Part shown: positions 27,698 to 34,457 of the stretch, piece by piece
How positions within the stretch are numbered: position 1 is the first letter of the stretch
How the letters are laid out: each line of letters begins with the position of its first letter
Assembly: GCA_963737265.1 (NCBI GenBank)
Contig: CAVTRY010000021.1
Span: 64,001-128,000 of the forward strand
Direction of reading: 5' to 3'
Source: an uncultured delta proteobacterium
Lineage (GTDB): Bacteria > Myxococcota_A > Polyangia > Fen-1088
DNA length: 64,000 nucleotides
Position numbers and translations under genes: made by a program
Notes under the pieces: model-generated
The model's database searches: none
Told to the model about the DNA's origin: nothing
Seen by the model: the letters and a program-made list of their open reading frames with translations, nothing else

Positions 27698-28545
27698 TTA
27701 CATCGCCCCATTGTTGTCGGGGGTAGTTGTCGTTGGTTGATCGGTAGTTGTCGTAGTTGTCGCTGGGGTGGTGACGCCTCTCTTTCGTGCTTCTTCGCTG
27801 CGGTAGCTGGGGCCGGTCATCTCAAGGATGACCGCGTGGTGGACCAGTCGGTCGATGGCGGCGGCGGTGGTCATGGGATCCTTGAAAATGCGGATCCAAT
27901 CGCTGAAGACCAGGTTGCTGGTGATGAGGACGCTCTTGCGTTCGTACCGCTCGGCCAGGAAGGTGAAAAGGACCTCCATTTCATCGCGGCTCTGCTGGAC
28001 GTAGCCGATGTCGTCGAGGATCACGGCGTGATAGATGTCGAGCGCGGCCAGTTCTCGTTCCAGGCGAAGGTCGCGCTTGGCGGCCAGCAGCCTGGACAAG
28101 CGCGAAGGTCGGCGTGAAGAGGACCCGGTAGCCGCGCCGGATGAGTTCGTGGCCGATGGCAGCCACAACGTGACTTTTGCCTCGGCCGGGCAGTCCGAAG
28201 ACGAGCAGGTTCTCCCCACGTTCGACAAAGCCACCCTCACACAGGCTCGCCATCTGCTTCATCACCTTGGGTGACAGCCGACCACGTTCCAGGGTGGCCA
28301 GGGTTTTCTCCGTGGGAAGGTCCGAATCGCGAAGCGCGCGATCGATGCGACGGGTTCGGCGCTCTTCGATTTCCAGTTCGGCCAGGTGCTGGAGGTATTG
28401 GCTGAAGGTCCACCCCTCGCGGCTGGCCTTGATCGCGATCTCCTCGGCGTGCCGGGTGAAGGCAGGCAGCTTGAGCGCGCGCAGAAGCACCAGCAGAGCG
28501 TTCGAGCGCGCTCGGCTTGACCGTGTCTACGGAGACGTTGGTCAT
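27698..28545 (-). pseudogene. istB: IS21 helper ATPase IstB with two frameshifts (about 28497 and 28095)
   Basis: GLPGRGKS Walker A and ILDDIGY Walker B lie in different frames; ITSN and AAIDRLVHH present. Confidence 0.85.
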
Positions 28546-30041
28546 GATGCCACCTGTTCGAGGAGCAGGTCGTAGGACGCGAGATCGACCAGCGGTGCTT
28601 CGAGCGCGGGGACGCTCGGTGGATAGGTACTGTCCGTCGCCTGTGTGCATCTCTTCTTGGTTGCATCCGCCGTCAAGATGGTCCCATCGGCAAGCAGAGT
28701 CGTGAGCGCTTGCTCGACATCGGCTTCCATCGTGCTGGCGGCCAGGTGAAGAATGCGCAGGTATTCAACGTCGCCTTTGATTCCAGGCTTGGTCGCCTGG
28801 ATCGCGTCGTATGCCCGCCTGAAAGTCACGCTTGGAAACAGCTCTTCTCGGTAGACGTAGCGAGAAAACGCGCCCGGCTTGCGCACCAAAGACCAGATGA
28901 CGTGCCGGTAGTCGATGCGCGCGGTCTTGCCTCGCAGCCTGTCGCAGGCCAATTCCAAGTTGTCGGCGTAGTACACCTCGATTCGGTGCTCGAACACGCG
29001 GACTCTCACCCGTGCGCCGATCAGCCTCGACGGCACCGAGTAGGCGCACGACTTGACCCGGATGGTGCTCGTCGACGCCACAGGTGCCGTCATTTCTGCG
29101 TACTCCGGCAAACGCTCCACCACCAGCGGCCGCATGGCTTCGATCTCCTCGGCGACGCGCGGGCCTCGCGAAGCGTTGGCTTTGCGGACCACCTTGGCTA
29201 CGAAGCGTTCGTAGTCGTCTTGGTCCGCGAAGTCGCGGCTGCCACGCACCAGCAACGCTTGTTCAAGCCGACGCTTGAGCGCGCCGTTGCTGGCCTCCAC
29301 ATCGCCGTTTTGTTCCTTGGCCCCGACGGCTGTAGTTCGTGCCTCCATTCCGAGGTGCCGCATGACCGCCTTGTATTCATCGTTGAAAGTGCGATCTTCC
29401 GCATCGCGAGCGATCTGATGTGTCGCCGCCGTCGAGTGGTCGGTTTGGTGGTATCGCGGCACCCGCCCAAGCTGGAACAGCGCCGACTGGATCCCTCGCC
29501 GAAGCGCTGCCAGAGACTCCGACAGACACGCGGTCGCCCATTGCCAGTTCGAGTACGGCAGCACCGTCACGCACAAAAGGTGCACAAATAGCTGGCCCAC
29601 GATCGTCACACCAAGCTCCGCCGTCGACGTGAAGTCGGTTTGCGCGGCTTCACCGGGCCGATGCGCCTGCGTGAACCAAATCTCACGCGCAGGACCATGC
29701 TCGGCCCGCCAGCGACGGATTCGCCGCTGCATTGTCCGAAGATGGCTCTCGTTGTACCGCCCTGGCTGCTTCGCCTCCAGCAGCTCCAGCACCGTCTGAG
29801 CCTCCAGCCCAGGCGTTTCCTCCAGCAACTTGGCCACGGCTGGCCAGTCCTCGGCGAACGCGTCAGGGCGCGTCCGCCACCACCGCGGCTGCCGTAGCTC
29901 CGACGGTAGCTTGCCCGCGGCGATGTATCGCCGCCCTGTCTTCCGGTCCATGCCCGCCTTCATGGCGGCCTGGCCTACTTTTCCAATCTTGCTCATCTCT
30001 TCCATCAAACGCCTCACTTGGGCGTCGGTGACCGGCTTCAA
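28542..30041 (-). CDS. istA: IS21 transposase IstA
   Basis: PGEAAQTDF, QTDH, NGDVE and YSVPSRLIG motifs. Confidence 0.92.
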   Translation of the reverse strand: MKPVTDAQVRRLMEEMSKIGKVGQAAMKAGMDRKTGRRYIAAGKLPSELRQPRWWRTRPDAFAEDWPAVAKLLEETPGLEAQTVLELLEAKQPGRYNESHLRTMQRRIRRWRAEHGPAREIWFTQAHRPGEAAQTDFTSTAELGVTIVGQLFVHLLCVTVLPYSNWQWATACLSESLAALRRGIQSALFQLGRVPRYHQTDHSTAATHQIARDAEDRTFNDEYKAVMRHLGMEARTTAVGAKEQNGDVEASNGALKRRLEQALLVRGSRDFADQDDYERFVAKVVRKANASRGPRVAEEIEAMRPLVVERLPEYAEMTAPVASTSTIRVKSCAYSVPSRLIGARVRVRVFEHRIEVYYADNLELACDRLRGKTARIDYRHVIWSLVRKPGAFSRYVYREELFPSVTFRRAYDAIQATKPGIKGDVEYLRILHLAASTMEADVEQALTTLLADGTILTADATKKRCTQATDSTYPPSVPALEAPLVDLASYDLLLEQVAS

Positions 30042-30153
30042 AGGTGCCTCCTGCCCGCTTGCGGGCTTGGAGGTCTACCTCACGGTCACCGTCGCGCCTC
30101 AAAGCGGGGCGACGTAGCTGTCGTCTTTGGGGAGATGTAATTGTCGCTCAGCA

Positions 30154-31182
30154 CTTCAGGCTCGCCTCGACGGTCGAATCCATCCACGCGCTGCCCGCTT
30201 GCGAAATGTACAACGTCGACGCCGAGGAGTCGCTCTGGGAATAGACCTTGGTGCCATCAGAGGCGGGGCTGAAATTCTGAATCGGGCCCTGGCGCACGGT
30301 CCACGCTCCCGTGCCGTTCTCGAAGTTGTCGCAGAAGGCCCACGAGCCCACGCAGGGATTGGGGATTGTGGTGACGTTGGTAACCGTGGTCGTATTGGTC
30401 ACCGTGCTGGTCAAAACGCCGGTCTTGGTGCCCGTCGCCGTGGTGGTTTGCGTCTGCGTGGTCGAATTGGTATCGGTCTGAACCTGCGTGTAGGTTCCGG
30501 TACCGGTTGCAGTGTGGGAATTCGTGCCCGTGCCGGTATTGGTAACCGTGGTCGTGTTCGTCGTAGTGATGGTGTTGGTTATGGTTCGGGTCAGCGTGCT
30601 GGTCTTGATGGTGCCAGTGGCCGTGCTGGTGTGGGTGGCGGTTGCGGTTACCGTGCTGGTGGCGGTCGAGGAGCTGGTCCCGGTGCTGGTGGTGGAATTC
30701 GTCACGGTCACCGTGGGAACGACGGTATACGTTTGGGCCGTGGTCCCGCTCGCCGTGGCGGTGCCGCTGGCTGTGCCGGTCGTTGAGCCAGTCTGCGTGG
30801 CGGTTCCTGTCGCTGTCAGGGTCAGGTGCCCCGTAACCGTCGTCGTGCCCGTGAGCGTCCCGGTCAGAGTCCTGGTCCCCGTGCCGGTGCCAGTGCCAAG
30901 ATAGCTTCCGGTCCAGGTGGCGGTTCCCGTCGCGGTCTTCGTCCCCGACACCGCGCCGCTGCTGGTCTGGGTTCCAGTCTTGGTGCCGGTAAAGGTGAGC
31001 GTCAGCGTCCCGGTTGCCGTGTAACTCTTGCTGCCAGTTGCGGTCTGCGTCTTGGTCAGCGTGCTCGACCCGGTCGCGGTTTGGGTTGCGGTCGAGGTTG
31101 TGGTGTTGGTCACAGTCTTGGTGACCGTGTTGGTAACTGTGTTGGTGACCGTGGTCGTGGTGGTCAGGGTTTGCGTTCGCAC
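30154..31182 (-). pseudogene. N-terminal fragment of giant surface protein: about 270-aa Thr-x-Thr-rich region plus start of ConA/LamG-like domain
   Basis: Alternating-Thr sequence followed by FCDNFENG...TVEASLK, cut by IS21; GTG 31182 preceded by GGAGGA; no signal peptide. Confidence 0.7.
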
Positions 31183-31184
31183 AT

Positions 31185-31246
31185 GATTTCCTCCAGCGCG
31201 TCGCGTGGCAGCGTCGCGCTGATGGTGCGCGAATTTTGCCCGCGGG
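31185..31246. repeat. Second copy of the 63-bp repeat (homolog of the peptidase/TPR gene 3' end)
   Basis: Reads DFLQRVAWQ versus DLLQRIAWQ at 3843-3869. Confidence 0.85.
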
Positions 31247-31264
31247 ATGGTACAAACAGCGCGC

Positions 31265-32308
31265 ATGTTTGGACCCAAGTTTCTCCGAAATGAAGCAGTG
31301 ACACCGGCGCCGGCCGGAACGCGGCCACGCGTGGCGGCCTACGATCTCGGCTCCAATTCGTTTCACTTGTTGGTCGCCGAGGCCGATGGCGCGGGGGGCT
31401 TGGTGGAGCTTGCGCGCGGGCAAGAGATGGTGCGCTTGGGCGAGGAATCTCTGCGCGACGGCATCATCCCCTTTTCGACCTTCCAGCGCGGTCTCGACGG
31501 ACTGCTCAAGCTACGCAAGATCGCCGACGGCTTCATGCCCGAAAGCACCATCGCGGTGGCCACCAGCGCGATCCGCGAGGCGCGCAACGGCGCGGATTTC
31601 GTCAGCACCGTGGCGCGCGAAGTTGGCCTGCAGGTGGAAGTTCTCGACCCGGTCAGGGAAACCACGCTGATTTACTGGGGCGCGCGCCAGGCCCTCGATC
31701 TTGGCGCAAACAAGTTCGCGCTTGTCGACGTTGGTGGCGGCTCGATCAAGGCGCTGGTCGGCAATGCCAAGGAATGCCTGTTCGCGACCTCGCTACGCAT
31801 GGGGGTGCTGCGTCTGCGCGACGAGTACAACTGCAACAACATTCGCAGCCGCGCCGACCTGCTCACCGCCGAGACACGCGTGCGCGCCGCGGTTCAGCCC
31901 GCGGTGATGCAGATGTTGAAGGTCGGCTTCGATTTCGTCACCTTCACCTCGGGCACGGCGCTGGCGCTGGCCCGCATGGCCGAAGGCAGTAGCGAAAAAG
32001 TCGCCGAAGCGCGCGGGCGATCCGGCGAAGGCATGGGACGCAACCTCGTGCTGTCGCTCGACAAGCTGTGCGCCCTCGAGGAACGACTGGTGGTCGCCAG
32101 CGCCGTCGAGCGTGCCGCCATGCCGGGCGTGGGCTCGATGCGCGCTGACACCGTGCTTCCGGGCACCATCATGCTGCGCACCCTGCTCGAGCTGACCAAC
32201 AGCGCGAACGCGCTCGTGTGCGAGAGCGCGCTCAAGGAAGGTCTGGTGGTTGACTACTTCGTGCGCCGGCAAACCGGTCTGGCCGAAGAGCTGCCCGAGA
32301 CGGACTGA
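31265..32308 (+). CDS. Ppx/GppA family phosphatase
   Basis: DLGSNSFHL, ATSAIREARN, DVGGGS and LKEG motifs. Confidence 0.9.
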   Translation: MFGPKFLRNEAVTPAPAGTRPRVAAYDLGSNSFHLLVAEADGAGGLVELARGQEMVRLGEESLRDGIIPFSTFQRGLDGLLKLRKIADGFMPESTIAVATSAIREARNGADFVSTVAREVGLQVEVLDPVRETTLIYWGARQALDLGANKFALVDVGGGSIKALVGNAKECLFATSLRMGVLRLRDEYNCNNIRSRADLLTAETRVRAAVQPAVMQMLKVGFDFVTFTSGTALALARMAEGSSEKVAEARGRSGEGMGRNLVLSLDKLCALEERLVVASAVERAAMPGVGSMRADTVLPGTIMLRTLLELTNSANALVCESALKEGLVVDYFVRRQTGLAEELPETD

Positions 32309-33113
32309 TCCGTCGCACTGGCCGGCGTAGGCTCAGGAGCTGGATCACGTGGAATAGCGCCTTTCTGAAGTAGTTCTTGTTGTTCTCGGTCGGCTTGGCC
32401 GAGGAGGCTTCGAAGCCCAAGCGCGCGGCAATGCCTGCCATCAGCGCGTTGCCGGACGCGTGCAGAAGGCAGGGCTCGGTGCCCGTGGCGACGTTGAGCA
32501 CGCGGCCATTCCTGAATTCGAGATCCTTCAGGTCCGGCTGGCGCGTGATGAAGTTCTTGAACAGCAGGTTGTGAAAGATGTCGCAGCGCCAGTCGAGCTC
32601 CACCACCCGGCGGTCGTGAATATAGAGGCTGGTGAGAATCTCCTGATCCATGTCGGTCGGCCCCATGCCGAATTCGTGCTCCAGGCGGTCGATCAGCCGC
32701 TGCGCATACCCGGCGGTGGAGATCCAGGTGCCCGAATTCAGGTAGTCGTAGCCGGTTGGATTGCGCAGCATGGGCTTGCCCGAATAGTTGAATTCCCTGC
32801 CGTAGACCCGCCGCAAAAGCGGCCCCAGCTTGAGGGCGCCACACACAAATGGCGCCGAGCCGCGCCGGAATTTCGCCTCGATTTCGTCGATGCCGCAAAG
32901 AAAGACCACGTCGAACGGATCGACCGAGAGCACGACCTCGTCGTCGGGGAGATCCTTGATGTAGTCGCGCGTCTCCATCGTCTTCTGCCCGAATCCAACC
33001 CACTTTCGACCCCAGCCGAGCAGCACAGGGGCAATGCCATGGCGCTGACACGACGCCATGAACAGGTCGAAGTACGCCTGCTTGTTGGTTCCGTACGCGA
33101 TAACCGTGGCCAT
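32232..33113 (-). CDS. Glycosyltransferase resembling the PLOD/lysyl hydroxylase N-terminal GT domain
   Basis: LGWGRKWVGFGQK, VLSVDPFDV, YLNSG, DQE and HASG motifs; 3' end overlaps ppx by 77 bp, so the true end is uncertain. Confidence 0.65.
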   Translation of the reverse strand: MATVIAYGTNKQAYFDLFMASCQRHGIAPVLLGWGRKWVGFGQKTMETRDYIKDLPDDEVVLSVDPFDVVFLCGIDEIEAKFRRGSAPFVCGALKLGPLLRRVYGREFNYSGKPMLRNPTGYDYLNSGTWISTAGYAQRLIDRLEHEFGMGPTDMDQEILTSLYIHDRRVVELDWRCDIFHNLLFKNFITRQPDLKDLEFRNGRVLNVATGTEPCLLHASGNALMAGIAARLGFEASSAKPTENNKNYFRKALFHVIQLLSLRRPVRRISPSRAALRPDRFAGARSSQPPDLP

Positions 33114-33176: not shown

Positions 33177-33204
33177 TTGACGGCGGAAAGGTGCGTGCTA
33201 GTAT
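33177..33204 (+). promoter_or_regulatory. Sigma70-type promoter of the leader-DAHP synthase unit
   Basis: TTGACG-N16-TAGTAT with extended -10 TG. Confidence 0.6.
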
Positions 33205-33218
33205 TGGACCACTCTCCG

Positions 33219-33293
33219 ATGCAACAGCACCCCGCGTTCCGTGGCTGCTTTGGCTACTCCTGGTGGCAACCAGGGCCGTGGGGACTCGCGTAA
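33219..33293 (+). CDS. Aromatic-amino-acid leader peptide MQQHPAFRGCFGYSWWQPGPWGLA
   Basis: 24-codon uORF with 2 Phe, 1 Tyr and 3 Trp (two in tandem), between the promoter and a terminator upstream of DAHP synthase. Confidence 0.85.
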   Translation: MQQHPAFRGCFGYSWWQPGPWGLA

Positions 33294-33317
33294 GCAACGA
33301 TTGCATCGAAGTCATCC

Positions 33318-33354
33318 AAGGCCCTGAGTAACCCTCGGGGCCTTTTTCGTTTTT
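33318..33354 (+). terminator. Attenuator (intrinsic terminator) upstream of DAHP synthase
   Basis: AAGGCCCTGAG-taacc-CTCGGGGCCTT followed by TTTCGTTTTT. Confidence 0.88.
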
Positions 33355-33371
33355 CGGAAAAGGAACCGCCC

Positions 33372-34457
33372 ATGTTGCAGACCAAGAACCTACGTATCGC
33401 CGAATTCGCGCCCCTCGTTACGCCCCACCAGCTCGAAGATGAGCTGGCCGCGTCCGACGAAATTCGGCGCATGGTGAATGCCAGCCGCGATGCCATCCAC
33501 ACCATGCTCCACGGCCAGGAAAACCACCGCTTGGTGGTGGTGGTGGGCCCGTGCTCGATTCACGATCCCGAGGCCGCAGTCGTCTACGCCGAGCGCCTGA
33601 AGAAGGTGGCGGACGCCACGCAAGACGACTTGTTTATCGTGATGCGCACCTACTTTGAAAAGCCACGCACCGTGGTTGGCTGGAAGGGGCTCATCAGCGA
33701 TCCGCACCTCGACGGGTCGTGCGACATTTCGGCTGGCCTGGCCCTGGCGCGCAAAACCCTGCTGCAAATCACCAAGCTCGGCCTACCCTGCGCAACGGAA
33801 TTTCTCGACACCGTGGTGCCACACTACTTGAGCGACATGGTCACCTGGGCCGCCATCGGCGCACGCACGACGGAAAGCCAGATCCACCGCCAGATGGCGA
33901 GCGGCCTGTCCATGCCGGTCGGATTCAAGAACAGCACCGACGGAGCGCTGCAGAACGCCATCAACGCCATGTTGTCGGCTCGGCACGAACACTCTTTTCT
34001 GGGCATCAACGCCGACGGAATCTCGTCGGTGGTCAAAACCACTGGAAATCTGGACGGCCACGTCGTCCTGCGCGGCGGCGCCTCGGGGACCAACTACCAT
34101 CCCGAGGACATCGCAGCCGCGGCGAACGCCGTGGCAAAAGAAGGCCTGGCACGCGGCGTGATGGTGGACTGTTCCCACGACAATTCCGGCAAGGACCACA
34201 CCAAGCAGGGCTCCGTGTTCACCGAAGTGGTGCGGAACTTCGCCGCCGGCCAGGAAGCCATCCTCGGGGTCATGATCGAAAGCAATCTGGTCGCCGGCAA
34301 GCAGACTTGGATGCAGGGCGTACCGCTGCAATACGGGGTGTCCATCACCGATAGCTGCATCGGGTGGGACGAGACCGAGCGCATGCTGCTGGAAGCGGCA
34401 TCGCTGTTGGCGAAGTCCAGACCGCGTCGCGCAACCAGGCAGGTCGCGGCCATGTGA
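33372..34457 (+). CDS. 3-deoxy-7-phosphoheptulonate (DAHP) synthase, class I-alpha
   Basis: GPCSIHD, YFEKPRT, IGARTTESQ, GFKN, DCSH and SITDSC motifs. Confidence 0.95.
   Translation: MLQTKNLRIAEFAPLVTPHQLEDELAASDEIRRMVNASRDAIHTMLHGQENHRLVVVVGPCSIHDPEAAVVYAERLKKVADATQDDLFIVMRTYFEKPRTVVGWKGLISDPHLDGSCDISAGLALARKTLLQITKLGLPCATEFLDTVVPHYLSDMVTWAAIGARTTESQIHRQMASGLSMPVGFKNSTDGALQNAINAMLSARHEHSFLGINADGISSVVKTTGNLDGHVVLRGGASGTNYHPEDIAAAANAVAKEGLARGVMVDCSHDNSGKDHTKQGSVFTEVVRNFAAGQEAILGVMIESNLVAGKQTWMQGVPLQYGVSITDSCIGWDETERMLLEAASLLAKSRPRRATRQVAAM

Follow-up and report, generated by a model that had tools for sequence, protein, structure and literature searches.

A putative ribosome-mediated attenuator of type I-alpha DAHP synthase, with a Phe/Tyr/Trp leader peptide, in Myxococcota and other phyla

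The closest described system is aroR-aroF of C. glutamicum, in which a leader peptide with aromatic codons precedes the DAHP synthase gene and stalling on it raises transcription, as the cited passages describe it (PMC11802643, PMC4046766, PMC7356990). According to the same passages, aroR encodes only Phe-Tyr-Phe and responded to Phe and not to Tyr. Other candidates are predictions, namely the motif uORFC-13-1 before aroF in Acholeplasma (PMC8632094) and attenuators before aroF-tyrA in Vibrio and Shewanella (PMC1173090, PMC2659441), which appear in the passages concerned as Phe- or Tyr-linked, with no Trp. The E. coli leaders pheL-pheA, pheM-pheST and trpL-trpE read one amino acid each and control branch or synthetase genes. 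The DAHP step of E. coli is carried out by three isoenzymes. Control of this step is described as involving the TyrR and TrpR repressors (PMC11802643). For cyanobacteria, a passage of a 2016 paper states that there are no reliable data for attenuation (PMC4833913).

The leader described here lies on the plus strand of a 64,000-nucleotide stretch of DNA (the window). A sigma-70-type promoter (33177-33204) consists of a -35 box TTGACG (33177-33182), a 16-nt spacer carrying an extended -10 TG (33196-33197), and a -10 box TAGTAT (33199-33204), and is the sole promoter-like site between 32500 and 34000, where 0.3 are expected. Transcription would start near 33211, and the ATG of a uORF of 24 codons and a stop (33219-33293) follows after ~8 nt without a Shine-Dalgarno sequence, making the uORF near-leaderless. 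As originally predicted, the uORF carries Phe, Tyr and tandem Trp codons (Phe7, Phe11, Tyr13, Trp15, Trp16 and Trp21), of which Phe7, Phe11, Tyr13 and the anchor Trp15 make up the control-codon window (33237-33263). An intrinsic terminator of 11 pairs (33318-33344, predicted fold -19.7 kcal/mol) and its U tract (33343-33354) end 27 nt ahead of the downstream gene, with a predicted RNA 3' end near 33347-33352. This gene (33372-34457, 361 aa) is preceded by a Shine-Dalgarno region visible in the sequence (33357-33364) and scores above the PRK12755 and aroFGH cut-offs, identifying the regulated gene as a type I-alpha DAHP synthase of the AroF/G/H family. The whole leader folds at -84.2 kcal/mol (z = -3.6), as good an energy being reached by none of 200 shuffles. 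A genome-wide scan found 124 terminator-like sites, with an aromatic-rich uORF ahead of only one, the DAHP synthase leader.

The pairings claimed for a classical attenuator are all present in the sequence. Segment 1 (33258-33263), the 5' arm of the 1:2 pause/protector hairpin, overlaps the Trp15 codon and pairs through 33259-33263 with 33270-33274 of segment 2. Segment 2 (33270-33277) can alternatively pair through 33271-33277 with 33320-33326 of segment 3 (33318-33328), which serves both as the 3' arm of the antiterminator and as the 5' arm of the terminator. The antiterminator closes a predicted inner stem (33279-33318, 33279-33293 with 33301-33318), and segment 4 with the U tract (33334-33354) completes the 3:4 terminator. 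The 2:3 pairing is mutually exclusive with both 1:2 and 3:4, as in attenuators of the trpL/pheL type. The U tract can also pair with the Shine-Dalgarno region of the DAHP synthase gene (33341-33363, about -13 kcal/mol with flanks). This pairing is similar in most leaders of the genus and absent in cyanobacteria, and may be simple complementarity of U-rich and purine-rich sequence.

Comparison with the described systems showed that the leader shares with aroR-aroF an aromatic-codon leader peptide ahead of a DAHP synthase gene, and with the Acholeplasma, Vibrio and Shewanella candidates the predicted control of such a gene by a uORF or terminator. However, to judge from the published descriptions, it is set apart from aroR by the 4-8 aromatic codons of all three kinds held by the leaders of its family and by the phyla in which these occur, and from the other candidates by its Trp codons and its taxa. 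With pheL, pheM and trpL it has in common the 1:2/2:3/3:4 layout and similar protection energies. Within the literature covered, which took in only a minor part of the subscription journals, no published Phe/Tyr/Trp leader of Myxococcota, Binatia or Thermostichus was found, agreeing with the earlier impression that none was known in Myxococcota; supplements of motif papers could list the leader family. Rfam Phe_leader has no match in the own genome, and NCBIfam and Pfam hold no family for the peptides. The mechanism is textbook and attenuation before DAHP synthase is already known, whereas a three-residue leader family across at least four phyla is apparently undescribed.

Conservation of the pairings was analysed in 32 leaders (alignment A2) chosen independently of the DNA stem pattern that was used for metagenome searches. 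The 2:3 and 3:4 stems are paired in 93% and 97% of cells, and their covariation scores were reached by none of 500 shuffles. The 1:2 stem is paired in 97.5% of cells, with covariation no higher than in shuffles (138 of 500). The covarying stems expected in relatives were thus found for the antiterminator and the terminator and not for 1:2. One 2:3 pair occurs as AU in 23, GC in 6 and GU in 3 leaders; 3:4 pairs occur as UA in 20, CG in 6 and UG in 6 at one position, and as AU in 17 and GC in 15 at another. In one base triplet, segments 2, 3 and 4 carry A, U and A or G, respectively, and six Binatia leaders have G, C and G instead, a 2:3 pair thereby being altered on both sides in 6 of the 32 leaders. 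The covariation represents few independent events in related sequences.

Codon counts were made on 91 unique leaders (106 minus 15 duplicates). All three aromatic residues are encoded between codons -8 and 0 in 88 of the 91, and in 31 of 32 whole peptides of the pattern-independent set. The anchor Trp is present in 89 of 91, a count inflated by the scan pattern, which demanded its codon; in the set chosen without it the figure is 30 of 32. Of the two tandem Trp codons, the second is conserved in just 34 of 91 homologues. Either synonymous codon is found at the Phe and Tyr positions, and the tail Gly is GGG in 89 of 91, indicating that the front of the uORF is selected as codons and its tail as RNA. 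In 63 of 91 leaders, a -35-like word is found 35-43 nt ahead of the start codon, and an SD-like 4-mer precedes the uORF in only 12. Near-leaderless initiation thus appears to be the rule for these leaders, and translation of the uORF is an assumption because it has no Shine-Dalgarno sequence. Such initiation is reported for a C. glutamicum ilvB leader, according to the title of a paper cited in PMC4046766.

Conservation, covariation and gene association strongly support the attenuator geometry foreseen for this locus, and the leader is very probably a classical ribosome-mediated transcription attenuator that reads the supply of aromatic aminoacyl-tRNAs before DAHP synthase. RNA polymerase would start near 33211 and pause at 1:2 while a ribosome initiates on the near-leaderless uORF. 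With charged Phe- and Tyr-tRNA, the geometry suggests that the ribosome covers segment 2, the 3:4 terminator forms and an RNA of ~140 nt is released. When Phe- or Tyr-tRNA is scarce, a ribosome stalled at Phe11 or Tyr13 would cover segment 1 and free segment 2, which could then form the 2:3 antiterminator, permitting transcription of the DAHP synthase gene.

The amino acids sensed were modelled at equilibrium by forcing the ribosome footprint single-stranded and computing how well segment 3 is held, with a footprint of 9 nt past the A-site codon calibrated on E. coli trpL (Trp10 and Trp11 -8 to -9, stop 0 kcal/mol) and pheL (Phe -7 to -15, stop -0.5 kcal/mol). In the window leader, the values are -10.8 for Phe7, -14.1 for Phe11, -18.2 for Tyr13, -12.7 for Trp15, -2.8 for Trp16, -2.0 for Trp21 and -3.0 kcal/mol for the stop. 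Means over the family are similarly arranged: codons -4 to -1 give -12 to -15 kcal/mol, the anchor Trp gives -9.7, the codon after it -2.3 and the stop -3.2. A modelled stall at the Phe and Tyr control codons frees segment 2 and a ribosome at the stop codon does not. Thus, masking the uORF codon by codon bore out the Phe and Tyr stalls, made Trp15 dependent on the footprint and gave no release of segment 2 at Trp16 or Trp21 with footprints of 9-12 nt. The order proposed originally, Trp and perhaps Phe/Tyr, is reversed by these energies; in the model, Phe11 and Tyr13 are the main sensors, with Phe and Tyr as firm inputs and Trp as a borderline one. Trp15 should mark the edge of the sensing window, and a stall at Trp16 or Trp21 would terminate transcription. 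It is rather probable on this modelling that Trp shortage gives a weaker response, Trp15 being the last position at which a stall permits 2:3. The 2:3 stem is predicted to be strong in the window even when the ribosome stalls before reaching the control codons, so that specificity would rely on kinetics.

An attenuator for Phe and Tyr only, or for Phe only as in aroR, with the Trp codon kept merely as the UGG of the 1:2 stem, is a serious alternative, although on the whole a doubtful one. The anchor UGG forms the 5' arm of 1:2 and is 7 nt from the 2:3 core; in the model, a stall there leaves 2:3 possible with a footprint of 6-9 nt (about 9 nt or less) but not of 12 nt, at which the pairing drops to 0.16-0.27. 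A Binatia leader (L082) has no Trp at all and retains the 1:2 stem through a compensatory change, and aroR, as the source passage describes it, responded to Phe alone despite its Tyr codon (PMC11802643); both are hints against Trp sensing. However, 16 of 91 leaders have an extra Trp codon inside the sensing window (-8 to -1). Furthermore, segment 2 has a G at the position facing the Trp codon in 9 of 32 leaders, and segment 3 compensates in six of these nine, whereas in seven the Trp codon retains its U opposite the G. Together with a copy of the leader in front of trpS, described below, these observations make Trp sensing by the leader plausible.

An arrest peptide of the TnaC/SpeFL kind, sensing a free amino acid in the ribosome tunnel, would account for the conserved length of 23-24 codons and the conserved Trp..Pro-Gly tail, and a weak SpeFL match was obtained (E 0.12, half the cut-off). 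However, the tail is constrained as RNA, its Gly being nearly always GGG and its Pro and Ser alternating as the pairing requires, two leaders (L066 and L124) change frame after the Trp, and the stop codon lies 1 to 13 codons past the Trp, so that the residue-level C-terminal arrest motif and fixed stop position of TnaC and SpeFL were not found in these leaders. The sign of the proposed control also fits a biosynthetic gene turned on by shortage, and an arrest peptide is very improbable. A constitutive terminator, or a small RNA or peptide gene, without regulatory link to DAHP synthase would be consistent with the strength of the terminator. It is equally hard to credit, since the antiterminator covaries, the codon content fits the pathway, the element occurs in single copy and nearly always immediately precedes DAHP synthase or trpS, and the stretch from the terminator to the gene showed no further promoter-like site. 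A leader that works as a riboswitch or T-box, or by binding a protein (TRAP-like), and whose ORF is incidental would suit the strong structure but is the least probable reading of all, the window and two homologues giving only chance-level Rfam matches, with no family, Phe_leader and Trp_leader included, coming near its gathering threshold, and the uORF start codon and frame being conserved with synonymous variation.

The attenuator is conserved within the genus. The aromatic-rich uORF looked for upstream of orthologous DAHP synthases was found, with promoter and terminator, in all 12 congeners (with the window copy, 13 of 13 loci of the genus), and TTGAC and TG-n-TA are invariant or nearly so in all 13. 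Three congeners have one codon fewer, so that the frame is kept. The window copy is among the least aromatic, with Arg8 and Cys10 against the usual Phe/Tyr8 and Tyr10. Across 89 genomes of the family and order, the peptide profile gave 13 matches in the genus, matches in 2 of 11 genomes of one other genus and one weak match, always in single copy, and the DNA search agreed save for five partial matches of 30-42 nt in four genomes. The leader is absent from all 21 other type I-alpha DAHP synthase copies retrieved from the family and class (about 50% identity), and among 301 genomes of the phylum the profile found only the own genome and three weak matches that do not adjoin DAHP synthase. The leader thus appears from these searches to be rare in Myxococcota and to follow one DAHP synthase clade across phyla, rather than being a feature of Myxococcota as such.

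In the own genome (99.5% complete), no aromatic leader was found before trpE, trpS or at the other PF00793 loci checked, and no type II DAHP synthase was found. A fused gene of 685 aa whose last domain is a second DAHP synthase (L254:1468-3525, minus strand, outside the window), which we take to be a chorismate mutase-prephenate dehydratase-type I-beta DAHP synthase fusion, has no leader of this family in front. An element of ~200 nt before trpE and trpS was considered as Trp-specific and rejected, as it has 50 matches genome-wide; it is a dispersed repeat with inverted ends (L255:1170-1380 and 49 others). Around the leader, a divergent gene with a PLOD glycosyltransferase domain (32232-33113, minus strand) starts 63 nt from the -35 box, and in some congeners an exopolyphosphatase-like gene lies directly upstream of the leader in its place. 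Further away on the minus strand, a long Thr-rich low-complexity ORF (30148-31278) is probably part of a surface or secreted protein, and a transposase and ATPase pair (27698-30041), the ATPase being split over two frames, is presumably an IS21-family element.

The distribution beyond the phylum was examined in the 80 best loci ranked by DAHP synthase similarity alone and then scored for the leader. The leader is present at 11 of 12 Myxococcota-type, 9 of 9 cyanobacterial and 10 of 16 Binatia/delta loci, and was found at none of 41 Nitrospiraceae and none of 2 Verrucomicrobiota loci. The sole leader-negative Myxococcota-type locus has N at that place, and the six leader-negative Binatia genes directly follow another gene. 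The cyanobacterial carriers are Thermostichus and hot-spring Synechococcus. In two of the cyanobacterial genomes (those of L065 and L091), the attenuated gene is the sole PF00793 match found. Among 251 Binatia-class genomes, 21 matches were obtained, of which the best 12 all adjoin DAHP synthase and the nine weaker ones do not. A set of 251 cyanobacterial genomes gave a real match in the centre genome only, and a 71-genome cyanobacterial sample has the leader at 3 of 30 loci, indicating that it is rare there. Weak peptide-profile matches (E above 5e-4) in Myxococcota, Binatia and cyanobacteria were rejected: they do not adjoin DAHP synthase, and their scores at the DNA level do not exceed 6 bits.

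The DNA pattern of the stems, run on metagenomes, found 86 loci, 81 of them with an in-frame uORF and 76 with DAHP synthase directly downstream (74 of 77 among those with 250 nt or more). Of the other three, one has trpS, one has citramalate synthase behind another leader and one is apparently a match by chance. Ten clusters were looked up for their source labels, and the labels of 3 name Planctomycetota (two) and Polyangiaceae (one). In four hot-spring metatranscriptome runs compared with the cyanobacterial locus L065, the uORF bin gave 1309, 1451, 6447 and 2936 against about 100-340 in the bins ahead of the uORF and just past the terminator. These values are from contigs, with several strains summed over the conserved uORF and the upstream region also covered, so that DNA is a possible source, and they were not counted as evidence. 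A different, Ile/Val/Leu-rich uORF with a terminator precedes a citramalate synthase gene (TIGR00977 over cut-off) at locus L239 (minus strand, about 1255-1480), and is likely a branched-chain attenuator of the citramalate route.

Phylogenetic analysis of 160 DAHP synthase rows gave a clade of 137 that holds every one of the 89 with a leader, supported at 99 by FastTree and at 98 by IQ-TREE on 38 rows; the leader-bearing proportion is biased, as metagenome rows had been selected by their leader. The remainder of the clade comprises 41 Nitrospiraceae, 6 Binatia and 1 gapped locus. A tree constrained to unite the enzymes of the genus with the other copies of the family was rejected (AU p = 6e-6), and leader and enzyme distances are correlated (Mantel r = 0.81 over 58 loci, kin not being independent). 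These comparisons indicate that the leader travels with its gene, the two forming a cassette that belongs to one DAHP synthase clade. Joint transfer of leader and enzyme, with losses, would be the simplest reading, and no donor is named as the tree has no outgroup root.

The trpS-linked copy is a single locus (L215), with the leader at 29-163 and a tryptophan-tRNA ligase gene at 185-1159 (TIGR00233 over cut-off). Compared with its three closest DAHP-linked leaders, it lost two Tyr codons and one Phe codon through single-base changes and kept three Trp codons. Its nearest leaders fall in a clade labelled Planctomycetota.

The final codons of pheL (L251:100-224) and pheM (L252:303-421) resemble those before the anchor Trp, and their UGA stop aligns with its UGG. 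The family profile scores 8.3 bits for pheM and 6.5 for pheL, compared with 5.9 for the best of 33 composition-matched controls, with codon-shuffle p values of 0.65 and 0.045, respectively. These similarities are at most suggestive of common descent, the scores exceeding those of the controls by little. PheM also has a similar CCUG...CAGG pairing. A different relation is seen with the leaders of short, type I-beta DAHP synthase copies in cyanobacteria, where single or tandem Phe/Tyr/Trp leaders with terminators occur at 19 of 20 loci (L291-L310). They likewise combine all three aromatic residues, a Trp near the end of the cluster and a terminator behind, but they belong to another enzyme subtype, are often in tandem, have the stop close to the Trp and show no sequence similarity to the family profile (at most 5.9 bits). 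They are probably convergent.

A wider reading is put forward tentatively, as something a little short of an even chance: the leader would be a three-input sensor of Phe-, Tyr- and Trp-tRNA at the entry of the shikimate pathway, carried as a promoter-leader-gene cassette across at least four phyla and bringing leader-peptide attenuation into cyanobacteria, retunable to Trp before trpS through loss of Phe and Tyr codons, its Trp input perhaps going back to a change of UGA to UGG in a leader resembling pheL or pheM. One leader of 140 nt may then integrate all three end products, compared with the three isoenzymes and two repressors of E. coli. The leader offers a direct test of multi-input attenuation, the sole tested precedent, aroR, having ignored one of its two encoded residues as far as the cited passages describe it, and the named Synechococcus and Thermostichus genomes that carry it should make it testable in culture. 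The cassette is a regulator travelling with its gene and could serve as a compact sensor of aromatic amino acids, and the leader family would extend leader-peptide attenuation to Myxococcota, Binatia, Planctomycetota and cyanobacteria.
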